DNA of 57,964 nt. Source: Deltaproteobacteria bacterium. GTDB lineage: Bacteria; Bdellovibrionota_F; JAHFAK01. Positions 571 through 56,054 of this stretch are shown here, piece after piece. The notes below the pieces were generated by a model. The model ran no database searches. It had not been told where the DNA came from and was given only the letters and a program-made list of their open reading frames with translations. The position numbers were made by a program, and so were the translations under genes. Positions within the stretch are counted from its first letter, which is position 1. Every line of letters begins with the position of its first letter. The stretch covers positions 2,514 to 60,477 of the forward strand of contig JAHFAK010000002.1 in assembly GCA_023250585.1 (NCBI GenBank), given 5' to 3'.

Positions 571-3500
571 ATGATGAAGAATATTTTCTCTGGTGTGTTT
601 TTCATTGGTTTATTCTTGAGTTTCAACGTATCAGTTTATAGTTCTCGAATCAGCATGCCTGTTAAGAAGCCTTTTAATCATTGTCCCGACTGTGGGTTTT
701 ATTTTAGTGAATTTGCTCAAACTCCAAATCCTTATGGTTGGCCTCTTCTTCATCCGGGTAAAGATGCTAATTTCCCTGGGGATAATGGATCTCCCTTATA
801 TGCTATTGCGGACGGACAAGTTTCATGTGTGTCTCCATTAGGTGGAACAGATGGAAATACTCCTACGGCATGGGGTAGTATTGTAATTCGACATACTATC
901 AATGGAGAAACTCTCTATTCACAATATGGACATGCACAAACGATCTATGTAAGAACAGGAGATTCGGTAAAACGGGGACAACTCATCGGAGAAGTTGGAG
1001 AGGTTGGAGCTGCGGGTTTTCCTCATTTACATTGGGAGATTAGAACAGCAAATCATCCTGCTGCCCTCAATAACTGTAATGCAAGTTATTGGAATCATGG
1101 AACTCGAAATCCATTAACTTCCGAACAATATTCACATTCTCCTCCTACTGATTCTGAAGGATTTCAAAATGCTCATAACATTTATACTTGGTATCGAAAT
1201 CCCGAAGAAACAGTTATTAATGCATCAATGAATGCTAAACGGAATGAGTCTTTGTATTTACATCTTCGTGAAGTAGCGAATGCAGACGAGCAATTTAATT
1301 TTCACTCGGTTCCTTGGTATAATCATTATCCACAAGATAACAATGGAAATATCATAGGAACAACTTTCCCTTTTAATATTTTCTCGTATTATTCGTATAC
1401 TAAAGATAATAGCAGCGAAGCTAATGATAAAAATTGTTATATTAAAGTATTTGTAAGTCCTTTAGGAAGGTATCGTGCAATTGTTTATGATCATGTTGAT
1501 ATAGCAACAGAATCCTACTCTGTGGGGTATCCTTTCTTACAAGATCAGAGCGTCGGATGGATGACTCATGGAGGTCCAACGTCGGTAATGAGAATGCCAA
1601 CGTCAAACGAATTTATTGCGAAATTTTTCCCATTAACCCTTCGGCAAAACTTTAAATATGGTTATTTAAGTTATAATTTTGGTGAACATACTGTGCGCAT
1701 GTATAATTGGGCCAACCAGCAATTGTTTTTTAGTGAAAATCCAGCCGAGCAGGATAGACCAGCTGTGTATGTTCCTGGAGGATTTCAGCATCAAGGTACT
1801 ACTCCTAAATGGGAATCCATGACATCATACCTTTTCACTGATGCGTATAATAGGAATACTTCTTTTATGGTTTATTATGTACCGGATGATCATGTAAGTA
1901 CCAATGAACCAAGAAACACCTATGAACAACTCTTTGTGAGAAGCAATAATAACAGTTATCTTCCTGTAACTGTTTTAATCGTAGCAAATCAGAATGAACG
2001 AGAAGTCGATTATAGTAATCTATCTATTCCCGCCTTACGAGATGCAAATAAATCTATTACTTCATCCGATCTTGGAGGAAGGAATGCATACATTCTTCGT
2101 TATTTCTTGAATGAGTATTATCAAAATTTTGGACAATACGGTCTTCCAATATCTGATGAAATATCCATTACAGCAGGGCAAGAGAGAGCGATTGTACAAT
2201 ATTTTGAAAACAGGGTTCTTGTATATAATCAAAGAAAGACTATTCCAAGACAAGCATACACATATGAAGATTTTACTAATAATTGGTGTTTATATATATA
2301 TAATCTAGCCGAGACACAATCTCAATGTAATAGAACAAACAATGCGGCTTTACGATCGAGAAGATTAGTAGCAACTACTGCACTACTCGTTCAACAAGGC
2401 AAGCTCCAAGTTCCAGGAATAAATAATCGCGAAGATTCATTACTCTATGCGCAAAGATTGGAACTGGTTGCTAGGAACGAGGATTCATTAACGAATATGC
2501 TTGGTGATAATCAAGATGAATCGCAACAGAAACCCGATCTAACTTTAAAAATACTGACGATCAATAACTTGCCTCCTCAAGAATTTACCTATCTCGCTGG
2601 CTCACCAAGTTTAGGAATTCAATCGATCGTTACTAATGGAGGAAGAGGGACGTCGGTACATGAATCAACTCTTACTTTTGTTATTAGTAAAGATGATACG
2701 TATTCAGCGGATGATTATGTGTTTGAAAAGGTCTATCTTCCGTTCTTACTTCCAAATCAAAGTTATAATTTTCAAATACTATTTGATTTACCGCAGAATT
2801 TTTCTTCGGGGACGTATTATCTCATTGCCTACGCTGACGGTGAATTTAACATTGAAGAAGAAAATGAAAATAATAATTATCATGTAGTTAGAGTACACAT
2901 CACAGGGGCCATGCGTGATATTGATAAGGATGGCTATTTTTCTATTGAAACCGGCGGAACCGATTGCGATGATGCCAACTCAGATGTCTATCCCGGGAAG
3001 ACGGATAGAGCAAATAATGGCATTGATGAAGATTGCAATGGATTCGATTATACGCGCGAACCTCTTGATTGGATTGCAAACCCCATTGATAATGTACAAA
3101 CGATTATTGAAAACATGTCCCCGGGCGATACGCTCATCTTTGGTCCCGGTATTTATCATATTCAAGGCCAATTATATAGTAATAAAAAAATATTCATTAC
3201 AAGCTCTCAAGGTCCGGAAAAAACAATTATTGATGGAACAGGGGTTTTTAATGCATCAATTGTTTTTGAAGGAACAAATGCTAATAACTCGATTCTCGAA
3301 GGAGTTACGGTAATGAATGCCCCTGATCACTGTATCGAAATTCTCGGAACAGCGCTCCTTATTAAAAATGTTATTATTCATGATTGTTCACGAAGCGGTA
3401 TACACATCATCAATATGCCCGACGTAATCGCGATTGAATCAGCGCTCATCTATAATAATGGACAAGATGGCGTTCAAGTCTTTGATTCACAGGTTGCACT

Positions 3501-4812
3501 TCAAGCTTCGACTCTCGTGAATAATAGAGGCTATGGAATGTGGGCAACCGGCGGACATAAACTGTGGTTGTATGCGAATATCTTTGCATACAATTATTTA
3601 GAAGGCCTTGATGTTCCAACGGCTACGGATCCTCGTATCTATAGAAATATTATCTATGGAAACGGCAGAAATAATAATGCATGGATATTAAATAATCCCG
3701 AAGTCATTCAAGAGGATCCTCGATTTATTAATCGAGAGGCTGGCAATTATAAGTTAAGTCCCTATTCTCCGGCAATTGATCGATGCTATAATTGTTTAAG
3801 CAATCCCGTTCAATACGATTATAACAACGATCCGCGTGTAGTTGGCTCAAGTATGGATATTGGAGCAGATGAGTTTACACGAGAAAGTTACGCAAAAGAT
3901 CTCTGCAAAAATCTTGAAGTAGAAACAGGAATGTATGAATATCATCAATGGATGATAGAATACGCGCCGTTACAACAGGTGATTGATCAATGTATCAGCG
4001 ATGGAGACAGACTCTTCGTTCATCCTGGTATATATGCTATTCCATCAGGGATAGATTTCAAAGGGAAAAATTTCAAACTATTCAGTGTCAAAGGTGCCGA
4101 AAAAACAATACTCGATGGAAAACAGTCAGCTTTAAGATGTGTTTTTATAGGAAGTGGAGAAAACTATGGTGCTCATCTTAAAGGATTTACGATCGAGAAT
4201 TGTGTCTATTATGGAATTGATATTCGGAATTCATCGCCTCAAATTTCAAGTAACATTTTGAGAAACAATGGGTCTTTTGGATTTCTTATTGAAAATTCAC
4301 CGAATAATTCTACTCTTGTAATAAGCAATCTTATCTATAAAAATGGGCGTGGCGGTGGATACGTATTAAATAGCAAAACATCAATTCAAGGAAATACGAT
4401 AGTACAAAACAGCGATTTTGGTATTTGGATTGATAATCCAGTAGCTCCCAGTGATTATTGCTCCTCCTGCGATTATTACAATATATATGCGTATAACCAA
4501 GGAATCGGTTTAAAGATAGGTACATCAAATACGAGTTGGAAAATGAGAGTTTATCGATCCGACTTTTATAAAAATGGCATTCCCCAAGATACGAATTATT
4601 TTGATGAAGGAAGTGTTGCGTGGTTTGAAAATCCACAATTTAGAAATTATGAGGTCGAAGATTATTATCTTTTAGAAAATTCCTATGTGGTCAACAAGGT
4701 CTATGGGGATTATACCAATCCTCTTGATTATGATGTTCATGGTAATTCTCGAAGAATTTGTTCCTCTATGGATTTGGGTGCTCTCGAGAATCAGGAAGTT
4801 ACGTGTGAATAA
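571..4812 (+). CDS. Giant secreted multidomain protein: M23 peptidase, CARDB-like domain, Cys-rich metal-binding-type motif and two right-handed beta-helix modules
   Basis: N-terminal signal peptide (FFIGLFLSFNVSVYSS). M23 motifs HPGKD (HxxxD) and HLHWE (HxH). CARDB-like segment KPDLTLKI...EENENNNY. DKDGY...DCDDANSDVYPG...DEDCNG resembles the myxobacterial putative metal-binding repeat. Two blocks of parallel beta-helix-like repeats each end in D(I/L)GA(D/L)E. Confidence 0.75.
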   Translation: MMKNIFSGVFFIGLFLSFNVSVYSSRISMPVKKPFNHCPDCGFYFSEFAQTPNPYGWPLLHPGKDANFPGDNGSPLYAIADGQVSCVSPLGGTDGNTPTAWGSIVIRHTINGETLYSQYGHAQTIYVRTGDSVKRGQLIGEVGEVGAAGFPHLHWEIRTANHPAALNNCNASYWNHGTRNPLTSEQYSHSPPTDSEGFQNAHNIYTWYRNPEETVINASMNAKRNESLYLHLREVANADEQFNFHSVPWYNHYPQDNNGNIIGTTFPFNIFSYYSYTKDNSSEANDKNCYIKVFVSPLGRYRAIVYDHVDIATESYSVGYPFLQDQSVGWMTHGGPTSVMRMPTSNEFIAKFFPLTLRQNFKYGYLSYNFGEHTVRMYNWANQQLFFSENPAEQDRPAVYVPGGFQHQGTTPKWESMTSYLFTDAYNRNTSFMVYYVPDDHVSTNEPRNTYEQLFVRSNNNSYLPVTVLIVANQNEREVDYSNLSIPALRDANKSITSSDLGGRNAYILRYFLNEYYQNFGQYGLPISDEISITAGQERAIVQYFENRVLVYNQRKTIPRQAYTYEDFTNNWCLYIYNLAETQSQCNRTNNAALRSRRLVATTALLVQQGKLQVPGINNREDSLLYAQRLELVARNEDSLTNMLGDNQDESQQKPDLTLKILTINNLPPQEFTYLAGSPSLGIQSIVTNGGRGTSVHESTLTFVISKDDTYSADDYVFEKVYLPFLLPNQSYNFQILFDLPQNFSSGTYYLIAYADGEFNIEEENENNNYHVVRVHITGAMRDIDKDGYFSIETGGTDCDDANSDVYPGKTDRANNGIDEDCNGFDYTREPLDWIANPIDNVQTIIENMSPGDTLIFGPGIYHIQGQLYSNKKIFITSSQGPEKTIIDGTGVFNASIVFEGTNANNSILEGVTVMNAPDHCIEILGTALLIKNVIIHDCSRSGIHIINMPDVIAIESALIYNNGQDGVQVFDSQVALQASTLVNNRGYGMWATGGHKLWLYANIFAYNYLEGLDVPTATDPRIYRNIIYGNGRNNNAWILNNPEVIQEDPRFINREAGNYKLSPYSPAIDRCYNCLSNPVQYDYNNDPRVVGSSMDIGADEFTRESYAKDLCKNLEVETGMYEYHQWMIEYAPLQQVIDQCISDGDRLFVHPGIYAIPSGIDFKGKNFKLFSVKGAEKTILDGKQSALRCVFIGSGENYGAHLKGFTIENCVYYGIDIRNSSPQISSNILRNNGSFGFLIENSPNNSTLVISNLIYKNGRGGGYVLNSKTSIQGNTIVQNSDFGIWIDNPVAPSDYCSSCDYYNIYAYNQGIGLKIGTSNTSWKMRVYRSDFYKNGIPQDTNYFDEGSVAWFENPQFRNYEVEDYYLLENSYVVNKVYGDYTNPLDYDVHGNSRRICSSMDLGALENQEVTCE

Positions 4813-31864: not shown

Positions 31865-34456
31865 ATGAAAAAAAACACTAACTATTTCAATATGTTGCTA
31901 TTTTCTATTATTCTCATGGGAATCCTTACCCTTTTTTCGTGTTTAGAAGTAAGTTCTGATTCATCTACTTCCGGAGACAAACAAACAAACACAGATACAG
32001 CTTCATCGACATCTGAATCTTCAGGCACTTCTGATGTTGATACGATGTCTCCTTTGGTTGTAAAGACTGATCCGGCTGACGGAGAGGTGGATATCTTCAT
32101 TACTAAGAAAATCGTTATTACTTTTTCAGAAGGAATCGATGAGGAAACAATTACAACTGATTCAATTCTACTCTATGAAGGAGATCGCGAGAAAGGCATA
32201 CTCGTAAGTGGAATAGTTAGTTATGATGCGGAGGCTTATAAAGCAACTTTTATTCCCGAAGAAAATTTATTAGAGTCGACTGAATATACAGGAGTGATTA
32301 TGCCGGGAATTAAGGATCTTTCGGGTAATCAGATAGCCGAGGAATATGTTTTTGCGTTTCAAACAGAAGTTCAAGACTATGCAGTTGATACAACTCCGCC
32401 TATCGTGAAAGAAACTTCTCCTGCTGATCAGGCCCAAGCGGTTTCTCTTTTATCTAAAATGAGTATCACTTTTTCTGAACCCATGGATGTTAAATCTCTC
32501 ACACCAGAAAATTTTATAGTCACTGCACATGCATCAGACATTTTGGGAAGTATTTCGTATAGTAGCCCTTCAAATGTTATTACGTTTACTCCTTCTGCTG
32601 GTTTACCGGCAAATACAAAAATCCAAGTGCAGTTGACGAAAGGATTGAAGGATGGAGCTGGAAATGGACTTGTGCAGGATTATTTTTTCAGCTTTACAAC
32701 CACTGATTCTGCTAATCAAGAATCTACACAATCAAATGGAGGATCTCAAACACCTTCATTGCCACCAGATACATTGAGTGTTGTAAGTACGACTCCAGAA
32801 AATAGTACAACAGGAGTTTTAGTCGCTTCAAATATAAGTATTGTTTTTTCGAATAATCTTGATCAAACAACTACTACCTCAACAAATATTTATATGACTG
32901 GAGGCGGAGGGGGTGTTGCGGCAGCATTGAGTTATGATAGTAATTCAAAGACAGTAACGATTGATCCTACGAGTAACTTAGCTCGAGGGACACAATATAC
33001 CGTTACTATAAATACAAACGTCAAAGACTCAGCAGGCGATGTACTTAATTCGAATTATTCATTTAGTTTTACAACACTTGCTCCGTTAAGTGTTGCCAGT
33101 ACAAGTCCTTCAAATAATGCTACGAATATCGATGTAGGCGCAAATATTACCGTTACTTTTTCGCAAGGCCTTGCTGGGGCTAGTGTAGCTTCATGGAACT
33201 TCCCTATGACGTCATCAGGCGGGTCGGTTGGAACAACAGTATCATACACAGCTGCGACAAATACTATTACGATTGATCCAAACTCAAATTTATCGAAATC
33301 AACAGTTTATACAATCACTGTATCATCAGGTGTGACTGATACCTATGGAGGTACATTAGGGCAAGATTATACGTTTAGTTTTACGACACAAGATCCAACA
33401 TGGCAGGTAGTGAGTAGCGCTGGATTTTCTATGAGTACTGCTACCTATACCGAGATGGAGATTGGTAGCGATGGAACAATTTATGTTGCATTTTCAGATG
33501 GCGCTGCTAGTGCTAATAATAAAGTTACTGTAATGAAAAATACTCAAGTCGCAGGCTCAGGTTGGGTAAATGTCGGTAGTGCTGGCTTTTCATCAGGCGC
33601 AGCAAGCTATATTGACCTTGAACTCTCTGGCGCAGCTAATACTCCCTATATCACTTTTAAAGATGCGGGTAATAACGACAAGGCAGCGGTATATAAGTTT
33701 AACGTCAATGTATGGGAAACCTATGGACCTCAGACTTTTACAACTACAGGAGTAGCATATACCAATATGGAATTAAATGGAGAAAATCCCTATATTGTCT
33801 ATCAAGATCCGGCAAATAGCTCAAAGGCGAGCGTTAAAAAATATAGCTCGGGCAACTACACTAAAGTTGGTAATAACTTAGGCCTTTCTTCAGGAACAGC
33901 AGCATATATTGATCTTGCCCTTGATAGTAGCGGCAATACGTATGTTGTTTATCAAGATGCAGCACAATCTAATAAAGCATCAGCTAAAAAAGCGGGAACG
34001 ACTGGAACATCACCATGGAATGATATCGGCAGTCCTGGTTTTTCTGCAGGAGCTGTAAGCTACTGTAGTCTTGAGATGTATAATGATGTTCCCTATGTTG
34101 TATATGTTGATGGAGGTAACTCGAGCAAGGCTACGGTAATGAAGAACACTCAAGTTGCACCTGCGGTCTGGGAAAACGTTGGAAGTGCAGGATTTTCTGC
34201 AGGTATAACTTCCTATACTGACTTAGAAATTAATACTTCTAATGGAGACCTCTATGTTGTCTACAGAGATGCCAGCAACACGAATAAGGCTACGGTTATG
34301 AAATACTCAGGCTCGAGTTGGGCTACACTTGGTACCGCTGGATTCTCAGCAGGAGCAGTGAGTTATACCGATCTTGCCATATACAACGGTGTTCCCTATG
34401 TCGTTTTCGTCGATGGAGCAAATGTTAATAAAGTGACGGTTATGAAGTATGAATAG
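31865..34456 (+). CDS. Surface lipoprotein with tandem Ig-like (SbsA/Big_5-like) domains and seven ~50-aa C-terminal repeats
   Basis: Lipobox LTLFSC. Repeated modules P..V....P.DG...V.....I.I.FSE..D. Seven C-terminal repeats of the form GFSAG.(V/A)SYTDL....(V)PYVVY.D..N.NKATVMKY. Confidence 0.7.
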   Translation: MKKNTNYFNMLLFSIILMGILTLFSCLEVSSDSSTSGDKQTNTDTASSTSESSGTSDVDTMSPLVVKTDPADGEVDIFITKKIVITFSEGIDEETITTDSILLYEGDREKGILVSGIVSYDAEAYKATFIPEENLLESTEYTGVIMPGIKDLSGNQIAEEYVFAFQTEVQDYAVDTTPPIVKETSPADQAQAVSLLSKMSITFSEPMDVKSLTPENFIVTAHASDILGSISYSSPSNVITFTPSAGLPANTKIQVQLTKGLKDGAGNGLVQDYFFSFTTTDSANQESTQSNGGSQTPSLPPDTLSVVSTTPENSTTGVLVASNISIVFSNNLDQTTTTSTNIYMTGGGGGVAAALSYDSNSKTVTIDPTSNLARGTQYTVTINTNVKDSAGDVLNSNYSFSFTTLAPLSVASTSPSNNATNIDVGANITVTFSQGLAGASVASWNFPMTSSGGSVGTTVSYTAATNTITIDPNSNLSKSTVYTITVSSGVTDTYGGTLGQDYTFSFTTQDPTWQVVSSAGFSMSTATYTEMEIGSDGTIYVAFSDGAASANNKVTVMKNTQVAGSGWVNVGSAGFSSGAASYIDLELSGAANTPYITFKDAGNNDKAAVYKFNVNVWETYGPQTFTTTGVAYTNMELNGENPYIVYQDPANSSKASVKKYSSGNYTKVGNNLGLSSGTAAYIDLALDSSGNTYVVYQDAAQSNKASAKKAGTTGTSPWNDIGSPGFSAGAVSYCSLEMYNDVPYVVYVDGGNSSKATVMKNTQVAPAVWENVGSAGFSAGITSYTDLEINTSNGDLYVVYRDASNTNKATVMKYSGSSWATLGTAGFSAGAVSYTDLAIYNGVPYVVFVDGANVNKVTVMKYE

Positions 34457-47196: not shown

Positions 47197-48501
47197 TCAA
47201 AAACGCACCGAAGGATCGCCATAAATTTGTGGAGCAAGAAGATTCGTATGAGCTACGGGGCTTAATGGATAATACACATTATCGATATAGTAATTCAGTG
47301 CAGCTGCAAGCGATTCACCGACACTATTGCCACGCAAAATGTATGATCCAACAAGAACCATTTGAGCCGTAATGCCGGGGATGTCTCGAATTGTTGCAAT
47401 AGGGTGTCTCAGATCTTGCTGTTCTATTGGACTTACTTCCTGAGTCGCCGCTAAGTATACAATGACATTATTTTTTAACAGCGCATCAGTAAGTGTTCCA
47501 TTAAAGCTATTGCCATTCGGAGCTCCATTCGAACAGCTTGCCGAAAATAAAACTACGGGAAAAGGATTAGTAATTTTTTTAATTATATCAGGGTGTAAAA
47601 AAGGTTCGCGTCGTGGTTGATAAATGGATGCTGTACTTGGTGATCCATGAGCTAATGTATAGACAAAACCAAAGTCATTTGCATTCCACTGTTCTACCAA
47701 GCTATCTTTGTTGAGAACCACGTCAGCTCCTTGCAATCCTTCTTCATACATTGAAAAAGTTGGAACATCTGCTTTAAAAAATACCATATTGTTTAATGGG
47801 TTAAGTAAAAAACCATTTGAATCAATGGGAAATCGAGACGTATCAATGCGAAGATATGCACGGGTAAAGCTCCCTCCCAAGAGACGAGCTTGTTTTCGAA
47901 AAAAGAGATCAGTACCTTTCATCGTTTCATATTCAATAGTGTTACTTAGAATTTTACTAATGACGCTGCTCTTATCAAATGGAATACGGCCAAGAAAAAC
48001 ATTATGATTATATTTAATATCAGGATCTTCGCCATTGAGACCCCAATTACTTTCGAGATCTTCATAGACTTTGTCAGTAGGAATAGTAATTTCTTCATTG
48101 AAAAAATTATGGCTTTTGAGTTTGAGCATGGGAATTATTTTTGGCGAACCGATGAGAAGAACGTACTCCGTATTCTCTGTATTTTTTTCTTCAATAATAA
48201 AATTTCGAAGTTTTTCTATTTTTTCGATCTCTCTATCTACATTACTATAGATTACATTAAGAGGGATCGCACTAACATTAAATCCAAGGTCTCGTTTATG
48301 ATTTTGAAAATCCTCAGTAAGAGGAATAATGCTTTTATCAGAAATTATTAGATACTGCTTTTGTTCAGTATTTTTTTCAAATTCATTATTTATTTTATCG
48401 AATGAATAACTATCCAAATAATCGTTCAAGCTTGCTTGGCAAGAAATAACAGAAACCAGAAAAATAGAGAGGATAAAATATTTATATACGTTTATGTGCA
48501 T
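47197..48501 (-). CDS. Lipoprotein, possible caspase-fold cysteine peptidase (C25/gingipain-like)
   Basis: Lipobox SVISC. EYVLLIGSPKIIP, TLAHGSP and LFSASCSNG are arranged like a His/Cys dyad. The assignment is tentative. Confidence 0.4.
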   Translation of the reverse strand: MHINVYKYFILSIFLVSVISCQASLNDYLDSYSFDKINNEFEKNTEQKQYLIISDKSIIPLTEDFQNHKRDLGFNVSAIPLNVIYSNVDREIEKIEKLRNFIIEEKNTENTEYVLLIGSPKIIPMLKLKSHNFFNEEITIPTDKVYEDLESNWGLNGEDPDIKYNHNVFLGRIPFDKSSVISKILSNTIEYETMKGTDLFFRKQARLLGGSFTRAYLRIDTSRFPIDSNGFLLNPLNNMVFFKADVPTFSMYEEGLQGADVVLNKDSLVEQWNANDFGFVYTLAHGSPSTASIYQPRREPFLHPDIIKKITNPFPVVLFSASCSNGAPNGNSFNGTLTDALLKNNVIVYLAATQEVSPIEQQDLRHPIATIRDIPGITAQMVLVGSYILRGNSVGESLAAALNYYIDNVYYPLSPVAHTNLLAPQIYGDPSVRF

Positions 48502-48549
48502 GTCTCTTACCTTTATTATCATAAACAAAAAAAGATGCAAGCTTGTAAC

Positions 48550-49848: not shown

Positions 49849-50880
49849 TCATTTCTTTAAAGATATTTCTCCGTTATTGGTTTGGAGCGCAAGGACATTG
49901 TGCGGTTTCCCCAACACAATAAAAAATGATTCCCCATTTTCAGTCATTTGGAATTTTTTCGTGATGTTTTGATCTTGGAAGGGAAAACCGTGTTCGGAAG
50001 TAGCGGTGATCTTAAGTTGGTTTCGGGAATCAAAGTTAATAGTAATATCTCCGTTGTGAGAGATCACTTCTGAATCACCCGTAAAAAGAACATTACGCCC
50101 TTCAAAGCGGCCATTATGGTCTTCTGCCGTTAAAGTTCCTTCGGTATCTTTTAACACAATATCTCCATTATGCCCGTCGATTTTTGCTTTTGTAAATTTT
50201 GTTTTTTCTAATTTAACTTCTCCATTCTGAGAATTAATATCCAATGACGTAATTGTACATTCTTTAATTTTCAAAGATCCGTTATGTGTTGTAATTGTAG
50301 CATCAGGAATCGTTGTTTTTGATACAGTAATGGAACCATTATGGGTTTCAGCCTCAAGTTTTTCAAATCGTTGAGCGTTGTAAGCTTGAGATCCATTATG
50401 TGTCGTAATATCGAGCGCTGAAAATGCTCCTCCGTCAGTTCTGATATATCCATTATGAGTTTCAGCTTCAATATTCATTTTTTCGGGAAGAAGAATTTTG
50501 AATGAAAACCCATAATTGTTTATTTCTCCGCCCACATCTTCGGCATCGTCACGATTTTCATTTGTAGTAACCTCTAGTGATGAGCCAGCAGGTTCTACTT
50601 TAAACGAAAGAGTAGCAAAAATTTTCTTTTGATCTTCGTCTGAAATACTTTTGAGAGTTTCAAAAAATTTAAAGCCACTAATCATAATATCTTCGCGTGC
50701 CTCTGCTTTAAATGTAAAATTGCTGTTATGTCCATCTGCGATAATTTTTTCGAGTGATTTTTTGTCGATCTTTATTTGTTTGATAGGCTCTCGATATTCA
50801 TGCTCATCATCAAAATGCGCTAAGAGCGATGTTGCTGAAACAATGAAGCTCATAAAAAATACAATTAAAATTCTTTGCAT
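49849..50880 (-). CDS. Secreted DUF4097-like beta-strand repeat protein (putative adhesin fold)
   Basis: Nine or more repeats of (E/T)THNG(S/D)I-type motifs. Signal peptide. The ATG at 50880 is preceded by GGAGG. Confidence 0.7.
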   Translation of the reverse strand: MQRILIVFFMSFIVSATSLLAHFDDEHEYREPIKQIKIDKKSLEKIIADGHNSNFTFKAEAREDIMISGFKFFETLKSISDEDQKKIFATLSFKVEPAGSSLEVTTNENRDDAEDVGGEINNYGFSFKILLPEKMNIEAETHNGYIRTDGGAFSALDITTHNGSQAYNAQRFEKLEAETHNGSITVSKTTIPDATITTHNGSLKIKECTITSLDINSQNGEVKLEKTKFTKAKIDGHNGDIVLKDTEGTLTAEDHNGRFEGRNVLFTGDSEVISHNGDITINFDSRNQLKITATSEHGFPFQDQNITKKFQMTENGESFFIVLGKPHNVLALQTNNGEISLKK

Positions 50881-51067
50881 AGGTTCCTCCATAACTTATT
50901 TTTGTTTATTGTATATATTCATAATATCTTACTATACAGCTTGTCTAGACCTTTTACAGGCTTTACTTATTGTATTCATTTTGTATCGAGTAAAGCACAC
51001 TGTTATTTTTGTATATACTATCCACTCGTTAAGTCTTTAATTTTAAACAAATAATTAATGTCATCTT

Positions 51068-51083
51068 TGGTATATAATTTGCA
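51068..51083 (+). promoter_or_regulatory. Weak sigma-54-like -24/-12 motif
   Basis: TGGTAT-ATAAT-TTGCA with GG-N10-GC spacing, 27 nt upstream of the ATG at 51109. The -24 half is weaker than at the other sites. Confidence 0.2.
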
Positions 51084-51108
51084 GAAGTGTACAATTATGG
51101 AGGTCTCT

Positions 51109-51639
51109 ATGGATTATAAAAAAATAGTTTTTTTGTTCGTATTCTCTTTTATGTTCGTCTGTTCATTTTTAGCCCAAACTTTTGCCAGCGAAAATCGAGA
51201 AGAGTCTTCTCAAGAAATTTGTCAGGGCCTTGAATCTTTTCTCCGATTTCATTGGGACAAATATCATCTTAAACCGAATATCCCCAACATTACCTATCTT
51301 AATCTTATTCTGTCTCATTGTAATGCAGAAAAAAATTCTTGGGATTTTGAGTTTAAATATATGTATAGCTATAAAGTCGATTCGTACTCATGTAAGAAAT
51401 GGCATACTCTTCAAGGTGTAAAAGATCCTATTCATCCCGAACGCCCACGTGAGGTTTGTATTGAATACGAACAAGATCAAATACGCGAAGAGTTTACTCA
51501 TGAGATTAAGGTGGATACGAAAAATGAGTATCGATTTTCGTTTGGTAAATCGTACTATAAAAAATATCATGAGATATATGATTGGATAAATAATCTTTTA
51601 AGAGAGTACATAAGAATTAATGAAAAGAATCGAGGATAA
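51109..51639 (+). CDS. Secreted Cys-containing hypothetical protein
   Basis: GGAGG Shine-Dalgarno. Signal peptide FLFVFSFMFVCSFLAQTFA. Confidence 0.55.
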   Translation: MDYKKIVFLFVFSFMFVCSFLAQTFASENREESSQEICQGLESFLRFHWDKYHLKPNIPNITYLNLILSHCNAEKNSWDFEFKYMYSYKVDSYSCKKWHTLQGVKDPIHPERPREVCIEYEQDQIREEFTHEIKVDTKNEYRFSFGKSYYKKYHEIYDWINNLLREYIRINEKNRG

Positions 51640-51668: not shown

Positions 51669-52673
51669 CTACCGTTCCACACATTTTTTAATTTTTTCTT
51701 TAAGGAAACGAGGAGTGCCTGTCCACATGGGAAGATCGTCTCTTATTTTGATACAAAGTTGTTTCGTAGTGTCCGGATCAATTTTTTCTAACGTAGAAAT
51801 TAAGTCTGGGATTAACAAAAAATACAAAAGAGAAGTGTTCCCTCGTTCATTTTTCATGAAGTCCATAGTTTCTTCTAAAAATATATCGATTTTTCTTTCA
51901 TGAAAATTAATCTTAAGCCTTAGCCATTGGAGAAAACGAGGCTGTAGTGCAGTTGTATCAATTAGCGTGTAATAGCCATGCAGTATTTCTTTCAATCCAT
52001 CATTCCATTGATAAGCACTATTCCCTAAAGCCATTTCATGCAAGATTTGAATTGTCATATCTCGTATCAAGCTTGGTTGAATTCTTTTCAAAAAAGATGA
52101 CCCCCATGGTCCTTTGAGGTAGGATATATTAAATACTGATGAATTAAGATACTGTATTGCTTCAATACTGCGGGATAGAGCGCGTGAATAGTTACCGGTT
52201 TTTACATCAATTCTGATTAAATTATGAGCTAGCTGTATTCGATGCATATGTAATAAATAAATACCAAACTTTTCTTCGAGAATGATATCAGCATCATTTG
52301 CTTGAAAGATTATTTGTTGAGCTTCGACAAAATTATTTTCACAATATTTAAAATAAGCTTTTGTTGAACAGAGAGACGATACACAGTGAAGTCGTGCTTG
52401 GAGTCCTAAAAGCCTGAGCCAATATTCAAAATTAGCTTGTTTATAATAAAGCTCTGCTGTCTGTAATTTCTTCTGCCGCGATGCTGTCAGCGCGTGAGCT
52501 GATAAAACCATAATACGTTTACAGATGAGATATTCATTAAGACTCACATTTTTTTTTATGAGTGATCCAGTTTTATCGGAGAAATATGTTCCAGAATAAA
52601 TAACTGATTGTAGAGAAAGCTTGCTACGACTTTCATTATATGCTTGCAGTATTTTTTGTAATGGTATTTTCAT
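51669..52673 (-). CDS. All-helical repeat protein of unknown function, coupled to the radical SAM gene
   Basis: The ATG at 52673 has AGGAG 9 nt upstream and lies 38 nt inside the 3' end of the radical SAM ORF. No signal peptide and no catalytic motif recognised. Confidence 0.6.
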   Translation of the reverse strand: MKIPLQKILQAYNESRSKLSLQSVIYSGTYFSDKTGSLIKKNVSLNEYLICKRIMVLSAHALTASRQKKLQTAELYYKQANFEYWLRLLGLQARLHCVSSLCSTKAYFKYCENNFVEAQQIIFQANDADIILEEKFGIYLLHMHRIQLAHNLIRIDVKTGNYSRALSRSIEAIQYLNSSVFNISYLKGPWGSSFLKRIQPSLIRDMTIQILHEMALGNSAYQWNDGLKEILHGYYTLIDTTALQPRFLQWLRLKINFHERKIDIFLEETMDFMKNERGNTSLLYFLLIPDLISTLEKIDPDTTKQLCIKIRDDLPMWTGTPRFLKEKIKKCVER

Positions 52674-54069
52674 GAATAGATAGCTCCTGAGATACTACAG
52701 TTTCTTCTTGTTTCATTCGAGAGATTGCATAATGAAGAAGGAGTTTTTGTTCAATATTAAATTTTGTAACAGGGCAGGGAATGTATCCCTCGAGCCATTT
52801 TTTTGGACATGCTCCACCGCAGACAGGAAGCATTCGGCAGGTATTACACGGTACTTGTCCTTTTTCTACGAGGGAATAAAAATCGCCAAAAACATTTTGC
52901 TTTCGTTTACCTGGGATCTCTCCATGTTCGAGATGACCAATTGCATATTTATTGGATTGAGATATCCCCGGAATTTTTTCGTATGCTGGAACCTGACTTA
53001 CTTCAGAGCAATCAAAAAGAGTTCCGGTGGCATCAATGAGAATTGCTTTGGGATCAACGGCAAAACAGGTAACTTTTTTTCGCTTAGGCAGTACATTAAC
53101 GTTAAAACCTAATTTATACATTTCTACATACCATTCCATTTCTCGCTCTCCAAATTCAGCTTGAGTAGGAGATGTTTTATCCGCATCATTTCCCCATGAA
53201 TAGACTAAGGTCCAATAGAAGGAGCCAAGGCGTTTCTGTAAATTGTGTTCAGCCAAAAGACGCATGAGTGGAATAACTCCATCCATATTTTCCCAACTGA
53301 CATTGCATCTAATAATAATTTTAAGCTTAATATCCTGAGATTCACAGATTGTGATAATATTATTAAAGATTTTATCAAATGACCCCTGTCCACCTTTTGT
53401 AGGTCTACTCTTATCATGGTACTCTTTTGTACCATCAAGGGTAATATGTACCTCAGTGATATCGAGCTCATCGTATAATTCCCGTGCAACTTCTTTAGTG
53501 ACTAAAACTCCATTTGAGGTTAATCGTCCACTGTAACTGCAACCAAATTGTTGAGCAAGTTCTTTAAATCTTTTTGTTAGTAGACGCATATCATCTAATG
53601 CTAAAAGTGCTTCGGCTCCAAACCATGAAATCAGGACTGATTTCCATTTCCTAGCAGAGAGTCGTTTTTGTAATTCCTCTACTAAAAGATCTTGATGTTT
53701 CTGTGATAAATTTTTTGCGGTATGTTTCTGACCACAATAACCACAGCCTAATTGACATAATGCCGTTGGCTGGATAACCATATACAAATCATCGCTATCG
53801 AGAATTTCGGCTTGATTTTCATTGAGAATGCTTAATAGCTCATTTTCATTTTTTGGCACAAGAATTCTCGTTGAGATAAGATCATCGATAATAGAACGAG
53901 GGATACCTTGAAGTAATCCCTCGTTTACACTATTCCATATATGTGGATCCATTATCCGGACTACTCCATTTCTTGTCCCATATACTATATGTTTTTCATA
54001 GCCATCACGTTCATCATAGATTGGAGTTGAAACTACATATTGAGAAAGTTTGAATAATGAATCAGGCAT
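52636..54069 (-). CDS. Radical SAM/SPASM-domain peptide maturase with an N-terminal RRE-sized extension
   Basis: CQLGCGYC (CxxxCxxC) begins about 105 aa from the N-terminus. C-terminal auxiliary-cluster cysteines are C..(x19)..C and CNTCRMLPVCGGACPKKW...PC (Cx2Cx5Cx3C). GAGGA Shine-Dalgarno. Confidence 0.85.
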   Translation of the reverse strand: MPDSLFKLSQYVVSTPIYDERDGYEKHIVYGTRNGVVRIMDPHIWNSVNEGLLQGIPRSIIDDLISTRILVPKNENELLSILNENQAEILDSDDLYMVIQPTALCQLGCGYCGQKHTAKNLSQKHQDLLVEELQKRLSARKWKSVLISWFGAEALLALDDMRLLTKRFKELAQQFGCSYSGRLTSNGVLVTKEVARELYDELDITEVHITLDGTKEYHDKSRPTKGGQGSFDKIFNNIITICESQDIKLKIIIRCNVSWENMDGVIPLMRLLAEHNLQKRLGSFYWTLVYSWGNDADKTSPTQAEFGEREMEWYVEMYKLGFNVNVLPKRKKVTCFAVDPKAILIDATGTLFDCSEVSQVPAYEKIPGISQSNKYAIGHLEHGEIPGKRKQNVFGDFYSLVEKGQVPCNTCRMLPVCGGACPKKWLEGYIPCPVTKFNIEQKLLLHYAISRMKQEETVVSQELSIHENTITKNTASI

Positions 54070-54092
54070 AATTATTTCCTCGGATAATTTGT

Positions 54093-54830
54093 TTATTTGA
54101 TAGACAGGTCTCCTTGATCAACGATAAGTTCAATATTAGAATTTTTATCAGAACACTGAGATGTTGGATATAAGGATATTTTAGGATATGCTTCAATCCA
54201 GGCGTTAATACGTTCGCTTGCTGGAATAGAAATATTTTTTGCTGTCAATACTCCTTGTCCTAGTTCTACTTTTATACAAGGATTCTTTTGTATATGAGTT
54301 GGCTTAAATTCAAGAGATCCCTGTTCAACATGTAGTTGTAACTTACTATTAGCAGTAGTCTCGCCCTTAAATAAAAGAGATCCCTGTTCAACAAGTAAAT
54401 TTGCTTGTAGTATTGAACCTGATAAAAATGTTATCATACCATTTTTAACTTTAGCAGTTAACACTATGTTAGATGGGACTACTATTGCTGCAGTTACCTC
54501 TACGTCTCCACAATTTCCATCAATCTCAAGATTGTTAAGGGTCGGTGTGGCTTTACAGTTATCTAGATTTTTACCTGTAAACCACCCGAGATTAGGTTGA
54601 AGTCGTACTCGATACTTAATCGGACTATCGTTTTCGGTAACTTCATGCTCTAAATCTATTTTTTCATCCGACACCTCTATTCTTAGTTCACCTCTTGTAA
54701 GAGTTACCTCGAGTGATTCTTGACCTTTTTTCAATGGTACCGTTCCACTTATTTCCTTTGCGTAAATTACTGAAGCAGAAAAACAAACGATAAGGCAGAG
54801 AACAATGAGAATGTTTAATCTTTTAACCAT
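54093..54830 (-). CDS. Secreted beta-strand repeat protein (DUF4097-like) inside the RiPP locus
   Basis: Signal peptide LIVLCLIVCFSASVIYA. Repeats VKNGMITF, VEQGSLLF, VEQGSLEF, LGQGVLTA and VDQGDLSI resemble the NG-turn repeats of 49849-50880. Confidence 0.6.
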   Translation of the reverse strand: MVKRLNILIVLCLIVCFSASVIYAKEISGTVPLKKGQESLEVTLTRGELRIEVSDEKIDLEHEVTENDSPIKYRVRLQPNLGWFTGKNLDNCKATPTLNNLEIDGNCGDVEVTAAIVVPSNIVLTAKVKNGMITFLSGSILQANLLVEQGSLLFKGETTANSKLQLHVEQGSLEFKPTHIQKNPCIKVELGQGVLTAKNISIPASERINAWIEAYPKISLYPTSQCSDKNSNIELIVDQGDLSIK

Positions 54831-54883
54831 AACGACCTCCAAATTAATTTATAATGTTTTTGTCATATTCTTAAATTTTCTTT

Positions 54884-54929
54884 TACCATGGCCATGGCAT
54901 ATATAATTTGATTAAGTATGCCATGGTAG
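54884..54929 (-). promoter_or_regulatory. Stem-loop between the precursor genes and the downstream genes
   Basis: CCATGGCAT (54892-54900) pairs with ATGCCATGG (54918-54926) around a 17-nt loop, with an extra overlapping CCATGG copy. There is no U-tract on the transcribed strand. Confidence 0.4.
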
Positions 54930-54955
54930 ATTTTACATAATACTTATATCTATTA

Positions 54956-55243
54956 CTAGCAGCCTGTATTACTAGGACAACCGGAATTGCTTGTACAGCT
55001 GCCCACATTAACTGAGTCTCCATTTATCGGAGAAGTAAAATCTAATTTTTCATAGGCGATAACAGATTCATATACAGCTTTTTGAACCTGCGTGGGTTCT
55101 TTTTTAGTAACTGCCGCATGAGTTGTTTGAGGTAAGACAATTGATCCTAATACAATATTCGCTCCTGCAACAAAGGTCATTAAATGTCGAGACAATCTCG
55201 ATTTTGTTTTCTCAGTTGGTTTGAAAATTTCATTTTTCTTCAT
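54956..55243 (-). CDS. RiPP precursor peptide paralog 3 (core ...NVGSCTSNSGCPSNTGC)
   Basis: 95 aa. Shares the leader blocks LSRHLMTFVAGANIVLGS, THAAVTK and YEKLDFTSP with the two upstream paralogs. Has its own RBS. Confidence 0.8.
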   Translation of the reverse strand: MKKNEIFKPTEKTKSRLSRHLMTFVAGANIVLGSIVLPQTTHAAVTKKEPTQVQKAVYESVIAYEKLDFTSPINGDSVNVGSCTSNSGCPSNTGC

Positions 55244-55280
55244 AATTATGTTCCTTTCTTATTAATGCGTATTTTTATTT

Positions 55281-55565
55281 CTAACAGCCAGTATTAGTTG
55301 GACAACCAGTATTGTGTGGGCAACTGGTATTACCGTCCTCATTATTTACTGGAGAAGTAAAATCTAATTTTTCGTATACATACACTGATTCGAGGACTGA
55401 TTTTTTAGTCAGAATAGTATCTTTGTTTGTAACTGCTGCATGTGTAATTTGTGGGATTGTTAATGATCCTAATACAATATTCGCTCCTGCAACAAACGTT
55501 ATTAAGTGTCTGGATAAGCCAGACTTTTTTTTCTCTGTTAAGTTTAAAGTTTTATTTTCCTTCAT
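55281..55565 (-). CDS. RiPP precursor peptide paralog 2 (core ...NTSCPHNTGCPTNTGC)
   Basis: 94 aa with the same conserved leader blocks. AAAGGAG RBS. Confidence 0.8.
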   Translation of the reverse strand: MKENKTLNLTEKKKSGLSRHLITFVAGANIVLGSLTIPQITHAAVTNKDTILTKKSVLESVYVYEKLDFTSPVNNEDGNTSCPHNTGCPTNTGC

Positions 55566-55601
55566 AATTATACTCCTTTCTTATTCACATATGTCTCTTA
55601 A

Positions 55602-55886
55602 CTAACAGCCTGTATTTTTTGGACAGCCAGTATTAGTTGGACAACCAGTATTACTTTCTTCCTCATGTATTGGAGAAGTAAAGTCTAATTTTTCGTATAC
55701 ATACACTGATTCAAATGTTGATTTTATAACTAAGGAATTGTCCTCCTTTGTAACTGCCGCATGTGTAACTTGAGGTAGTACAAATGTACCCAATACAATG
55801 TTTGCCCCAGCAACAAAAGTCATTAAATGTCGCGATAATTTCGACTTCTTTGTTTCTGGTAGCTCCAAAACTTCATCTTTCTTCAT
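55602..55886 (-). CDS. RiPP precursor peptide paralog 1 (core ...SNTGCPTNTGCPKNTGC)
   Basis: I chose the ATG at 55886 (MKKDEVLEL) because AAGGAG lies 7 nt upstream and it gives the same 94-aa length as the paralogs. The track's extension to 55940 is unsupported. Confidence 0.8.
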   Translation of the reverse strand: MKKDEVLELPETKKSKLSRHLMTFVAGANIVLGTFVLPQVTHAAVTKEDNSLVIKSTFESVYVYEKLDFTSPIHEEESNTGCPTNTGCPKNTGC

Positions 55887-55967: not shown

Positions 55968-56054
55968 AAAGTTATTTCTTGTAATTACTGAATGTTAGAT
56001 GTTTTTGACTTATAGTGATGCAATCAAAAGAAGACATTTTGTCTTCGTCAGTAT

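Follow-up and report, generated by a model that had tools for sequence, protein, structure and literature searches.

A radical SAM/SPASM enzyme and tandem Asn-x-x-Cys peptides form a candidate thioether-peptide operon that belongs to a large enzyme family

Introduction

The enzyme NxxcB of Streptococcus orisratti joins the cysteine thiol of an Asn-x-x-Cys (NxxC) motif to the beta-carbon of the asparagine, closing a four-residue ring; Asp, Gln and Ala are tolerated at the acceptor position, the cysteine is needed, and the peptide NxxcA has one bridge, Asn20-Cys23 (Caruso et al. 2019, as summarised in PMC9389541 and PMC8326336, where the pair belongs to the streptococcal NxxC subfamily of RaS-RiPPs; RiPPs are peptides that the ribosome makes and that are modified after translation). 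Another enzyme, QmpB, joins cysteine to the alpha-carbon of asparagine (PMC11851443). Here we describe an operon that, like NxxcA/NxxcB, combines Asn-x-x-Cys cores with a radical SAM (S-adenosylmethionine)/SPASM enzyme. It occupies positions 51669-55886, minus strand, of a 57,964-nucleotide stretch of DNA from a Deltaproteobacteria bacterium (contig JAHFAK010000002.1, positions 2,514 to 60,477), below called the window, and runs compactly from three precursor genes through the gene of a beta-repeat protein to those of the radical SAM enzyme and of a helical protein. The original prediction, made before any database search, took it for a candidate new RiPP system and described NxxcB as linking the Cys sulfur to the Asn beta-carbon, with which PMC9389541 and PMC8326336 agree. 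The system is new in that no name or description of its family was found, but it is not a one-off: the locus is one deep-branching member of a large family.

The likeness to the streptococcal pair extends to Asp, which NxxcB accepts and which occasionally replaces Asn here. Unlike NxxcA with its single bridge, however, the cores in the window have three motifs and those of the wider family one to seven. The streptococcal clusters adjoin an shp/rgg quorum-sensing operon and are known from few streptococci only, whereas here no Rgg-like regulator was found among the neighbouring genes and the family is spread over Gram-negative phyla, cyanobacteria and actinobacteria; the two also differ in their leaders, in the export route, here predicted to be Sec, and in their partner genes. 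The system also resembles the PapB/freyrasin ranthipeptides, in which a radical SAM/SPASM enzyme makes several beta-thioethers in a repeated short motif, with an acceptor that has a side-chain carbonyl. In those peptides, however, the cysteine lies upstream (Cys-x3-Asp) and not downstream (Asn-x2-Cys) of the acceptor, and the PapB model (NF047865) matches residues 100-423 of the window enzyme below its cut-off (89.8 bits versus 340; E 1.9e-25). The operon would thus appear to work like NxxC and ranthipeptide systems and yet, judged from its sequences, to fit no defined family. A literature search, with subscription-only genome-mining atlases outside its reach, returned NxxC for streptococci only and no curated model of, or paper on, this enzyme family. 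Such clusters are probably picked up already by rule-based miners, under a generic ranthipeptide or radical SAM RiPP label, and the chemistry is probably familiar.

Results

Three tandem precursor genes encode NxxC cores

As predicted, three paralogous open reading frames (ORFs) of about 94 residues recur with a period of about 323 bp, each with its own ribosome-binding site (RBS). The products have 94, 94 and 95 residues (precursors A, B and C in Table 1), the starts are 321 and 322 bp apart, and AAAGGAG or AAAGGAA stands 7-8 nt upstream of the ATG in all three genes. A mechanical ORF list stretches the first precursor to 55940 (112 residues); we place its start at 55886, in agreement with the RBS and with two independent metagenome contigs (L085 and L086) that carry the identical cluster and on which the same genes are called.

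The C-termini read SNTGC-PT-NTGC-PK-NTGC (A), NTSC-PH-NTGC-PT-NTGC (B) and NVGSC-TS-NSGC-PS-NTGC (C), just as had been claimed, that is, three N-x-x-C motifs with a two-residue spacer following the first and the second. The conserved leader blocks are equally clear, LSRHL.TFVAGANIVLG, THAAVT and YEKLDFTSP being invariant in all three paralogs. In precursor A, the charged N-region is followed by a signal-like hydrophobic segment (TFVAGANIVLGTFVL), then by a cleavage-like site between THA and AV, a conserved block (ESVYVYEKLDFTSP) and the core; the hydrophobic segment (TFVAGANIVLG...) runs into the invariant THA/AVT site, and the invariant block ESV..YEKLDFTSP follows. The paralogs are 65-68% identical, with pairwise synonymous divergence (dS) of ~0.9-1.4 and a ratio of non-synonymous to synonymous divergence (dN/dS) of ~0.15-0.26. 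They are therefore old duplicates kept by purifying selection rather than chance ORFs.

None of the curated NCBIfam or Pfam families reaches its cut-off with the precursors. A profile search of 1.84 billion representative proteins with the window's precursor type recovered its own cluster only, and a scan of JGI metagenomes gave one relative, 54% identical. By sequence, the precursor type of the window thus appears almost unique.

The enzyme has the features of a RiPP maturase

The enzyme scores 41.3 bits against PF04055 (gathering threshold 29.5), which places it in the Radical SAM superfamily, and 40.6 bits over residues 320-450 against TIGR04085, the SPASM model (cut-off 27). Both cysteine motifs read from the sequence by the original prediction are present: the CxxxCxxC about 105 residues in is C105/C109/C112, and the Cx2Cx5Cx3C is C408/C411/C417/C421. 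With the further SPASM cysteines C335, C354 and C432 they make up ten cluster cysteines, all of which, together with G349 of the SPASM motif, are invariant in an alignment of 25 homologues. The seven-cysteine SPASM domain, whose motif has the general form Cx9-15Gx4C ... Cx2Cx5Cx3C ... C, would be expected to serve two auxiliary clusters.

The best NCBIfam matches are peptide maturases throughout, all far under their curated cut-offs of 340-600 bits. The best equivalog is TIGR04463 (rSAM_vs_C_rich; 194.5 bits versus 525, and 182-200 bits for five homologues of the enzyme), followed by CefB (NF038107; 141 bits), the geopeptide maturase (TIGR04280; 141), Clo7bot (TIGR04334; 123) and FlmE/OhkG (108). 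The first four, the nearest curated families, are bioinformatically defined radical SAM/SPASM maturases of Cys-rich peptides, which to our knowledge have not been characterised biochemically; the models of TIGR04463, CefB and the geopeptide maturase align over the N-terminal domain of the enzyme too. Since the window enzyme and homologues from five other lineages score at 20-37% of the cut-offs of these four, their family is distinct from each of them. Membership in any curated NCBIfam or Pfam equivalog family was rejected for the enzyme and its homologues alike, no cut-off being reached. The enzyme does not cluster with the anaerobic sulfatase-maturating enzymes (anSMEs; TIGR03942, 56.8 bits versus 349), and the models nearest to it are those of RiPP maturases. 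Hidden Markov model scores, domain architecture and gene context led us to reject a sulfatase maturase or another non-RiPP radical SAM enzyme.

An AlphaFold2 model of the enzyme, built on the 25-sequence alignment, reached a pLDDT of 84.9 and a pTM of 0.85. Its top Foldseek match in the PDB was CteB (5WHY/5WGG), with 465-488 columns aligned, N-terminal domain included; ChlB, TigE, anSME, SuiB and SkfB came after it. Residues 1-100 of the model (pLDDT ~78-93) have strands at 24-31 and 36-40, helices at 42-49 and 58-66, a strand at 70-72 and a helix at 77-91. The first 95 residues are likely an RRE-like (RiPP recognition element) leader-recognition domain, to judge from the predicted fold. The room that the original prediction saw for an RRE/PqqD-like domain is therefore filled, in the predicted structure, by an N-terminal domain that aligns with that of CteB; the corresponding sequence models do not find it (see Discussion). 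CteB, the SCIFF maturase, shares the order of RRE-like N-terminus, radical SAM core and SPASM domain and forms thioethers. The two enzymes are, however, only 16-17% identical, TIGR03974 gives 49 bits versus 425, and the substrate of CteB is a 45-residue six-Cys peptide without NxxC repeats, in which the acceptor is Thr C-gamma.

Enzyme and NxxC peptides are paired across phyla

Hundreds of homologues at 40-52% identity are found in metagenomes and genomes, and a scan of one genome per GTDB species gave 330 relatives. Their hosts include cyanobacteria, Planctomycetota, Chloroflexi, Beta- and Gammaproteobacteria, Bacteroidota, Kitasatospora and other actinobacteria, and, among the alphaproteobacteria, Nitrobacter, Mesorhizobium, Roseibium, Caedibacter, Holosporaceae and Rickettsiaceae. 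In a rough neighbour-joining tree the window enzyme forms a deep, isolated branch of the family, apart from the enzymes of Caedibacter, Holosporaceae, Rickettsiaceae and Silvanigrella, which group together.

The association of enzyme and peptide was counted with our own motif rules on six-frame ORFs of 81 non-redundant homologous loci. A strict rule (a small ORF upstream on the same strand, with at least two NxxC within its last 45 residues) was satisfied in 45 loci; nearby, 3.5% of ORF segments had this property, as against 0.23% of all others. Under a relaxed rule, which allows Asp for Asn and any ORF position, paired (N/D)xxC motifs appear in 59 of the 81 loci and across phyla. The peptide-enzyme pairing is thus conserved well outside the window. 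Most of the loci that lack a paired motif have a single NxxC, or an NxC or NxxxC variant, near a C-terminus.

Of 186 core cysteines, 164 have Asn at position -3 (a count inflated by the choice of ORFs with at least two NxxC motifs) and six have Asp there; 151 have Gly, Ser or Ala at -1, and 42 have Asn at +3. From these statistics the unit is N-x-(small)-C, usually in 2-7 repeats and often on several tandem precursor genes. Examples are ...SDQNTGCQNSGCGG (Nitrobacter), NVSCGSGNNKGCPISNTGCGP (Runella), NGICYNGSCGKD (Caedibacter), NTGCGPNTGCG (Cytophagaceae), NTGCHINTGCG (Kitasatospora) and NNSGCSNNSC (Iningainema). Enzyme and precursors together would, by their sequences, constitute a large family of which no description was found.

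Some members have, instead of tandem genes, single long precursors with repeated spacer-plus-core modules, such as three copies of GLN.SCSGN.GCHAPGPE or a repeated CDGGGS.NTGGC (L003:5035-5691, Singulisphaera; L011:4140-4823, Chloroflexi; L025 and L030, Myxacorys; L051:3752-4192, Holosporaceae). At one further locus (L091:200-436), an enzyme homologue, P0011 (45% identity), adjoins a peptide ending in CCNPTVCKCCNPTCT, a Cys-rich core of CCNPT repeats; the enzyme family may accordingly not be confined to NxxC.

Leaders and export routes vary within the family

The precursors differ from lineage to lineage in how they begin. In Bacteroidota the leaders are of the GG type and a C39-peptidase ABC exporter accompanies them; in alphaproteobacteria, actinobacteria and some other groups the leader is helical (LxxAKxxLDxA). 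In about 18 loci the precursor has a Sec-type N-terminal signal and no dedicated exporter goes with it. These comprise nearly all the cyanobacterial loci, Caedibacter and Silvanigrella, whose precursors have canonical short signal peptides with AxA sites, and, by eye, Holosporaceae. Five loci outside cyanobacteria with a secreted beta-repeat gene and/or Sec-type leaders (L001, L041, L051, L060 and L070) are from Caedibacter, Holosporaceae, Rickettsiaceae and Silvanigrella. Caedibacter, Holosporaceae and Rickettsiaceae are endosymbionts or intracellular bacteria of protists.

The window is of the same Sec type. As had been observed, neither an ABC exporter nor a C39 peptidase is encoded among the genes neighbouring the operon, and Sec-signal-like leaders take their place. 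The hydrophobic segment and the THA/A site of these leaders fit their description as signal-peptide-like; the hydrophobicity is moderate (Kyte-Doolittle 1.9) and the charged N-region has 20 residues. On sequence grounds the window appears to represent the family's least common architecture, with its Sec leader, toastrack-like protein, helical partner and S41-like peptidase.

A ThiF-YcaO fusion of ~800 residues lies downstream of the radical SAM gene in 14 loci, many of them in the groups with a helical leader and most of them alphaproteobacterial or on unassigned metagenome contigs (L004:7522-9924, L089:6535-8937 and 12 others), which suggests that the NxxC peptides there gain an extra backbone modification such as an azoline or thioamide.

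Two described systems combine peptide modification with a destination outside the cytoplasm. QhpD is a radical SAM/SPASM enzyme that makes several Cys-to-Asp/Glu thioethers in the small polypeptide QhpC, a subunit of quinohemoprotein amine dehydrogenase that reaches the periplasm through a transporter of its own. Its model (TIGR03906) gives 53 bits versus 453 with the window enzyme, and no qhp genes are present here. Bufferins set a precedent for RiPPs that receive their modification in the cytoplasm and then leave through the general Sec pathway without a dedicated transporter, a route described as rare among bacterial RiPPs (PMC11626156). They share this export logic only, since they depend on an MNIO (DUF692) enzyme with a DUF2063 partner and on oxygen, and carry thiooxazoles for copper binding; among the operon genes, MNIO enzyme and DUF2063 partner are absent.

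Partner proteins

The original prediction saw no known RiPP role for the partner genes. There is still none, yet the partners are conserved, the helical protein in 26 of the 81 loci and the toastrack-like protein in Caedibacter and Holosporaceae.

The helical gene is almost always immediately downstream of the radical SAM gene, and in the window overlaps it by 38 nt, which would allow translational coupling. The protein has a conserved polar motif, H144-R-I-Q147-x-x-H-N151-x-x-R154, in addition to R66 and E213. A few members of its family give weak TPR matches, making it TPR-like at best, and a single-sequence AlphaFold2 model has a pLDDT of 42.5. It may be a co-factor, a scaffold or a second enzyme.

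The 245-residue protein encoded between the precursors and the enzyme has a signal peptide (MVKRLNILIVLCLIVCFSASVIYA, followed by KE) and ~6-7 repeats of h-x-h-x-(E/D)-Q-G-x-L-x-h. It scores 13.5 bits against Toastrack/DUF4097 (PF13349), below the gathering threshold of 22.9. Caedibacter and Holosporaceae have genes in the same position, and the Caedibacter protein reaches 30.2 bits, above the cut-off; the BLAST chains that lead from the window protein to these counterparts are weak (E 0.007 and 1e-4). The secreted protein is thus possibly toastrack-like by sequence, and its gene is absent from most family loci. About 0.8 kb past the operon end lies a 347-residue protein (49849-50892, minus strand) whose N-terminus is a signal or a membrane anchor; with its clear Toastrack/DUF4097 domain (E 2.7e-19) and weak LiaX/LiaG-like matches, it is a second toastrack-type envelope protein in the neighbourhood. 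In an hhalign comparison of the toastrack-like profile with this DUF4097 protein, the signal peptides alone aligned.

Divergently from the precursors a 522-residue lipoprotein is transcribed (signal LLS before the Cys). It gives 20.4 bits against PF03572 (threshold 24) and 31.6 bits against the CPAF model (cut-off 250), a weak match that does not argue for a chlamydial host, and a PDB sequence search found no match. The gene directly after the radical SAM enzyme and the helical partner in a Chloroflexi locus (L011) encodes a protein 36% identical to it over 478 residues (E 2e-100), with RGNSGG and GSAC motifs conserved between the two. This one co-occurrence makes the S41-like lipoprotein a candidate processing protease; its sequence-based membership of the system is tentative.

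Features and surroundings of the operon

The features are collected in Table 1.

Table 1. Genes and RNA element of the predicted NxxC peptide locus, in window coordinates
Feature	Coordinates	Strand	Basis
Precursor A, 94 aa	55602..55886	-	RBS; same 94-aa call on L085 and L086; dN/dS
Precursor B, 94 aa	55281..55565	-	RBS; paralog alignment; dN/dS
Precursor C, 95 aa	54956..55243	-	RBS; paralog alignment; dN/dS; sole cluster recovered by large profile search
Secreted beta-repeat protein, 245 aa	54093..54830	-	ATG behind GGAGG; PF13349 13.5 bits
Radical SAM/SPASM peptide maturase (predicted), 477 aa	52636..54069	-	PF04055; TIGR04085; cysteine motifs; AlphaFold2/Foldseek
All-helical partner protein, 334 aa	51669..52673	-	Family in 26/81 related loci
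S41/CPAF-like peptidase with lipoprotein-type signal, 522 aa	56173..57741	+	PF03572 20.4 bits; Chloroflexi homologue
Hairpin, 10-bp stem, without U-run, in 113-nt spacer past last precursor gene	54892..54926	-	Folding energy

The stem of the hairpin past the last precursor gene folds with ~-17 kcal/mol, and the z-score for the entire spacer is -1.8; the element could, on this weak support, stabilise or attenuate the transcript. Upstream of the first precursor, the intergenic region between the divergent genes holds a terminator-like hairpin with a T-run (56030-56046, minus strand). The statistics of neither hairpin are compelling. Upstream of the precursors, no riboswitch or other known RNA was matched.

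The window is a chromosomal segment of 36% G+C that carries nuo and fatty-acid oxidation genes. PADLOC defence-system models returned nothing beyond a trivial viperin-type radical SAM match. A gene for a 193-residue secreted protein (51058-51639, plus strand; signal ...TFA before SEN; no assigned family), also found on metagenome contig L085, converges on the operon end, with the stop codons 29 nt apart. About 3 kb from the operon, and with no established tie to it, lies a 447-residue gingipain-type Peptidase_C25 protein (47197-48540, minus strand; E 2.3e-28). Two large surface-type proteins are encoded further away on the plus strand. The first (571-4812; 1413 residues) combines an M23 peptidase, CARDB and a right-handed beta-helix with a MopE-like copper-binding motif; the second (31865-34456; 863 residues) has four Ig-like domains of the Big_5 type, which a CopC-like match overlaps.

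Discussion

We propose, with a probability of roughly 0.6, that the operon makes RiPPs, that the radical SAM enzyme forms an intramotif Cys-Asn thioether in each NxxC motif, and that the product is exported by Sec. The three precursors would be translated in the cytoplasm and bound by the N-terminal recognition domain of the enzyme, probably at the ESV..YEKLDFTSP block that immediately precedes the core, perhaps with help from the helical partner. The 5'-deoxyadenosyl radical would then take a hydrogen from the asparagine, and the carbon would be joined to the sulfur of the cysteine three residues downstream, held on an auxiliary Fe-S cluster. The outcome would be three consecutive four-residue thioether rings with two-residue separation, for which a mass change of -6 Da is predicted. 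The analogy with NxxcB makes the beta-carbon the likeliest point of attachment, with the alpha-carbon, as in QmpB, as the alternative. The precursor's own Sec-type signal would take the modified peptide over the inner membrane, no dedicated ABC/C39 exporter being involved, and a signal peptidase cut after THA would release a peptide of ~51 residues, which the divergent S41-like lipoprotein may trim further. In its action the peptide may be joined by the secreted toastrack-like protein that the operon also encodes.

The intramotif thioether is the best supported chemistry because of the conserved Asn at -3, its occasional replacement by Asp, the SPASM domain and the thioether-forming activity of the nearest structures and models. 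The acceptor beta-carbon in NxxcB and PapB adjoins a carboxamide or carboxylate, and Asp in place of Asn fits an acceptor of this kind. The gene content, the cofactor motifs, the predicted enzyme fold, the family-wide pairing with NxxC peptides and the Asn at -3 are observations; that the peptides are substrates, that thioethers form and at which carbon, that Sec exports and a peptidase cleaves the product, and what the helical, toastrack-like and S41-like proteins do are inferred from them.

Several points weigh against this proposal. No curated family gives the enzyme more than 37% of its cut-off, and the comparison with NxxcB is one with the described reaction of that enzyme. PqqD/RRE sequence models give no match to the N-terminal domain, and the RRE assignment therefore rests on the structural model. 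In 22 of the 81 loci neither motif rule finds a paired motif. The toastrack and S41 assignments are both under Pfam thresholds. In the hexapeptide repeat of the window each cysteine also stands three residues before the next asparagine (C-P-x-N), which is the spacing of N-x-x-C; the window alone therefore leaves the direction of the ring unfixed, and only the family-wide statistics fix it. Finally, the moderately hydrophobic segment behind its long charged N-region could be a membrane anchor.

One alternative, with an appreciable minority chance, is that enzyme and substrate are as proposed and the chemistry is another: an alpha-carbon sactionine at Asn of the QmpB kind, a bridge that ties Cys to a residue other than the Asn of its own motif, or a change of Cys or Asn without crosslinks such as epimerisation or a thiomorpholine-type modification. 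The enzyme is distant from every characterised maturase, QmpB links Asn C-alpha to Cys S (PMC11851443), so that asparagine serves as acceptor in both regiochemistries, and the Cys-P-x-Asn spacing in the window equals that of Asn-x-x-Cys. Across the family, however, the constant is an asparagine three residues before the cysteine, including the first motif and C-terminal cysteines with nothing after them; the N/D exchange fits the carbon adjacent to the side-chain group (beta), and both the closest solved structure (CteB) and the nearest characterised model (PapB) belong to enzymes that form thioethers.

A second alternative, which we consider unlikely, is that the hydrophobic segment is an uncleaved anchor and the products are small membrane-tethered proteins with a stapled C-terminal tail. 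It would account for the 20-residue charged N-region, the moderate hydrophobicity and the AGAN inside the h-region. The three paralogs and a relative on L088, however, all have the THA/A site, where small residues occupy -3 and -1, and the homologous precursors of cyanobacteria, Caedibacter and Silvanigrella have canonical short signals with AxA sites. That the small ORFs are not substrates at all, and are independent secreted Cys-rich, perhaps metal-binding peptides beside an enzyme that acts on another protein (by anSME-like formylglycine formation, or on the toastrack-like protein), is highly improbable: cysteine-rich tails could in principle bind metals, the enzyme has a weak anSME match (TIGR03942, 56.8 bits) and anSME structures are among its Foldseek matches, but that score is far under 349, no sulfatase gene was found in the operon neighbourhood, anSMEs have no N-terminal domain like the one seen here, the toastrack-like gene is missing from most loci, and it is hard to explain otherwise why the enzyme goes with NxxC peptides in at least six phyla when leaders and accessories are wholly different.

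A more speculative reading, doubtful as a whole, concerns the Sec-leader branch (the window, Caedibacter, Holosporaceae, Silvanigrella and many cyanobacteria). Its products might be small envelope-resident proteins, rather than diffusible antibiotic-type RiPPs; their C-terminal tail would be stapled by radical chemistry ahead of Sec export, and they would work with the secreted toastrack-like protein, say in sensing the state of the envelope or in interacting with a host. They would then be a radical SAM counterpart of bufferins, the helical partner with its HRIQxxHNxxR motif, not recognised before, would be required for the modification, and the chemistry at asparagine could be new.

The proposal, if true, would offer natural-product chemists ready compact multi-ring scaffolds and a substrate-tolerant stapling enzyme, for which the conserved helical partner may be needed to reconstitute activity. 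RiPPs that leave by the general Sec route would gain a second, oxygen-independent example. The proposal would also carry Asn-x-x-Cys beta-thioether stapling beyond three streptococcal species and make it the signature of a radical SAM RiPP family with 330 enzymes among GTDB species representatives in at least six phyla, in which the leaders (Sec signal, GG-type, helical) are modular and so are the accessories (C39-ABC exporter, ThiF-YcaO fusion, TPR-like partner, toastrack-like protein, S41-like peptidase).

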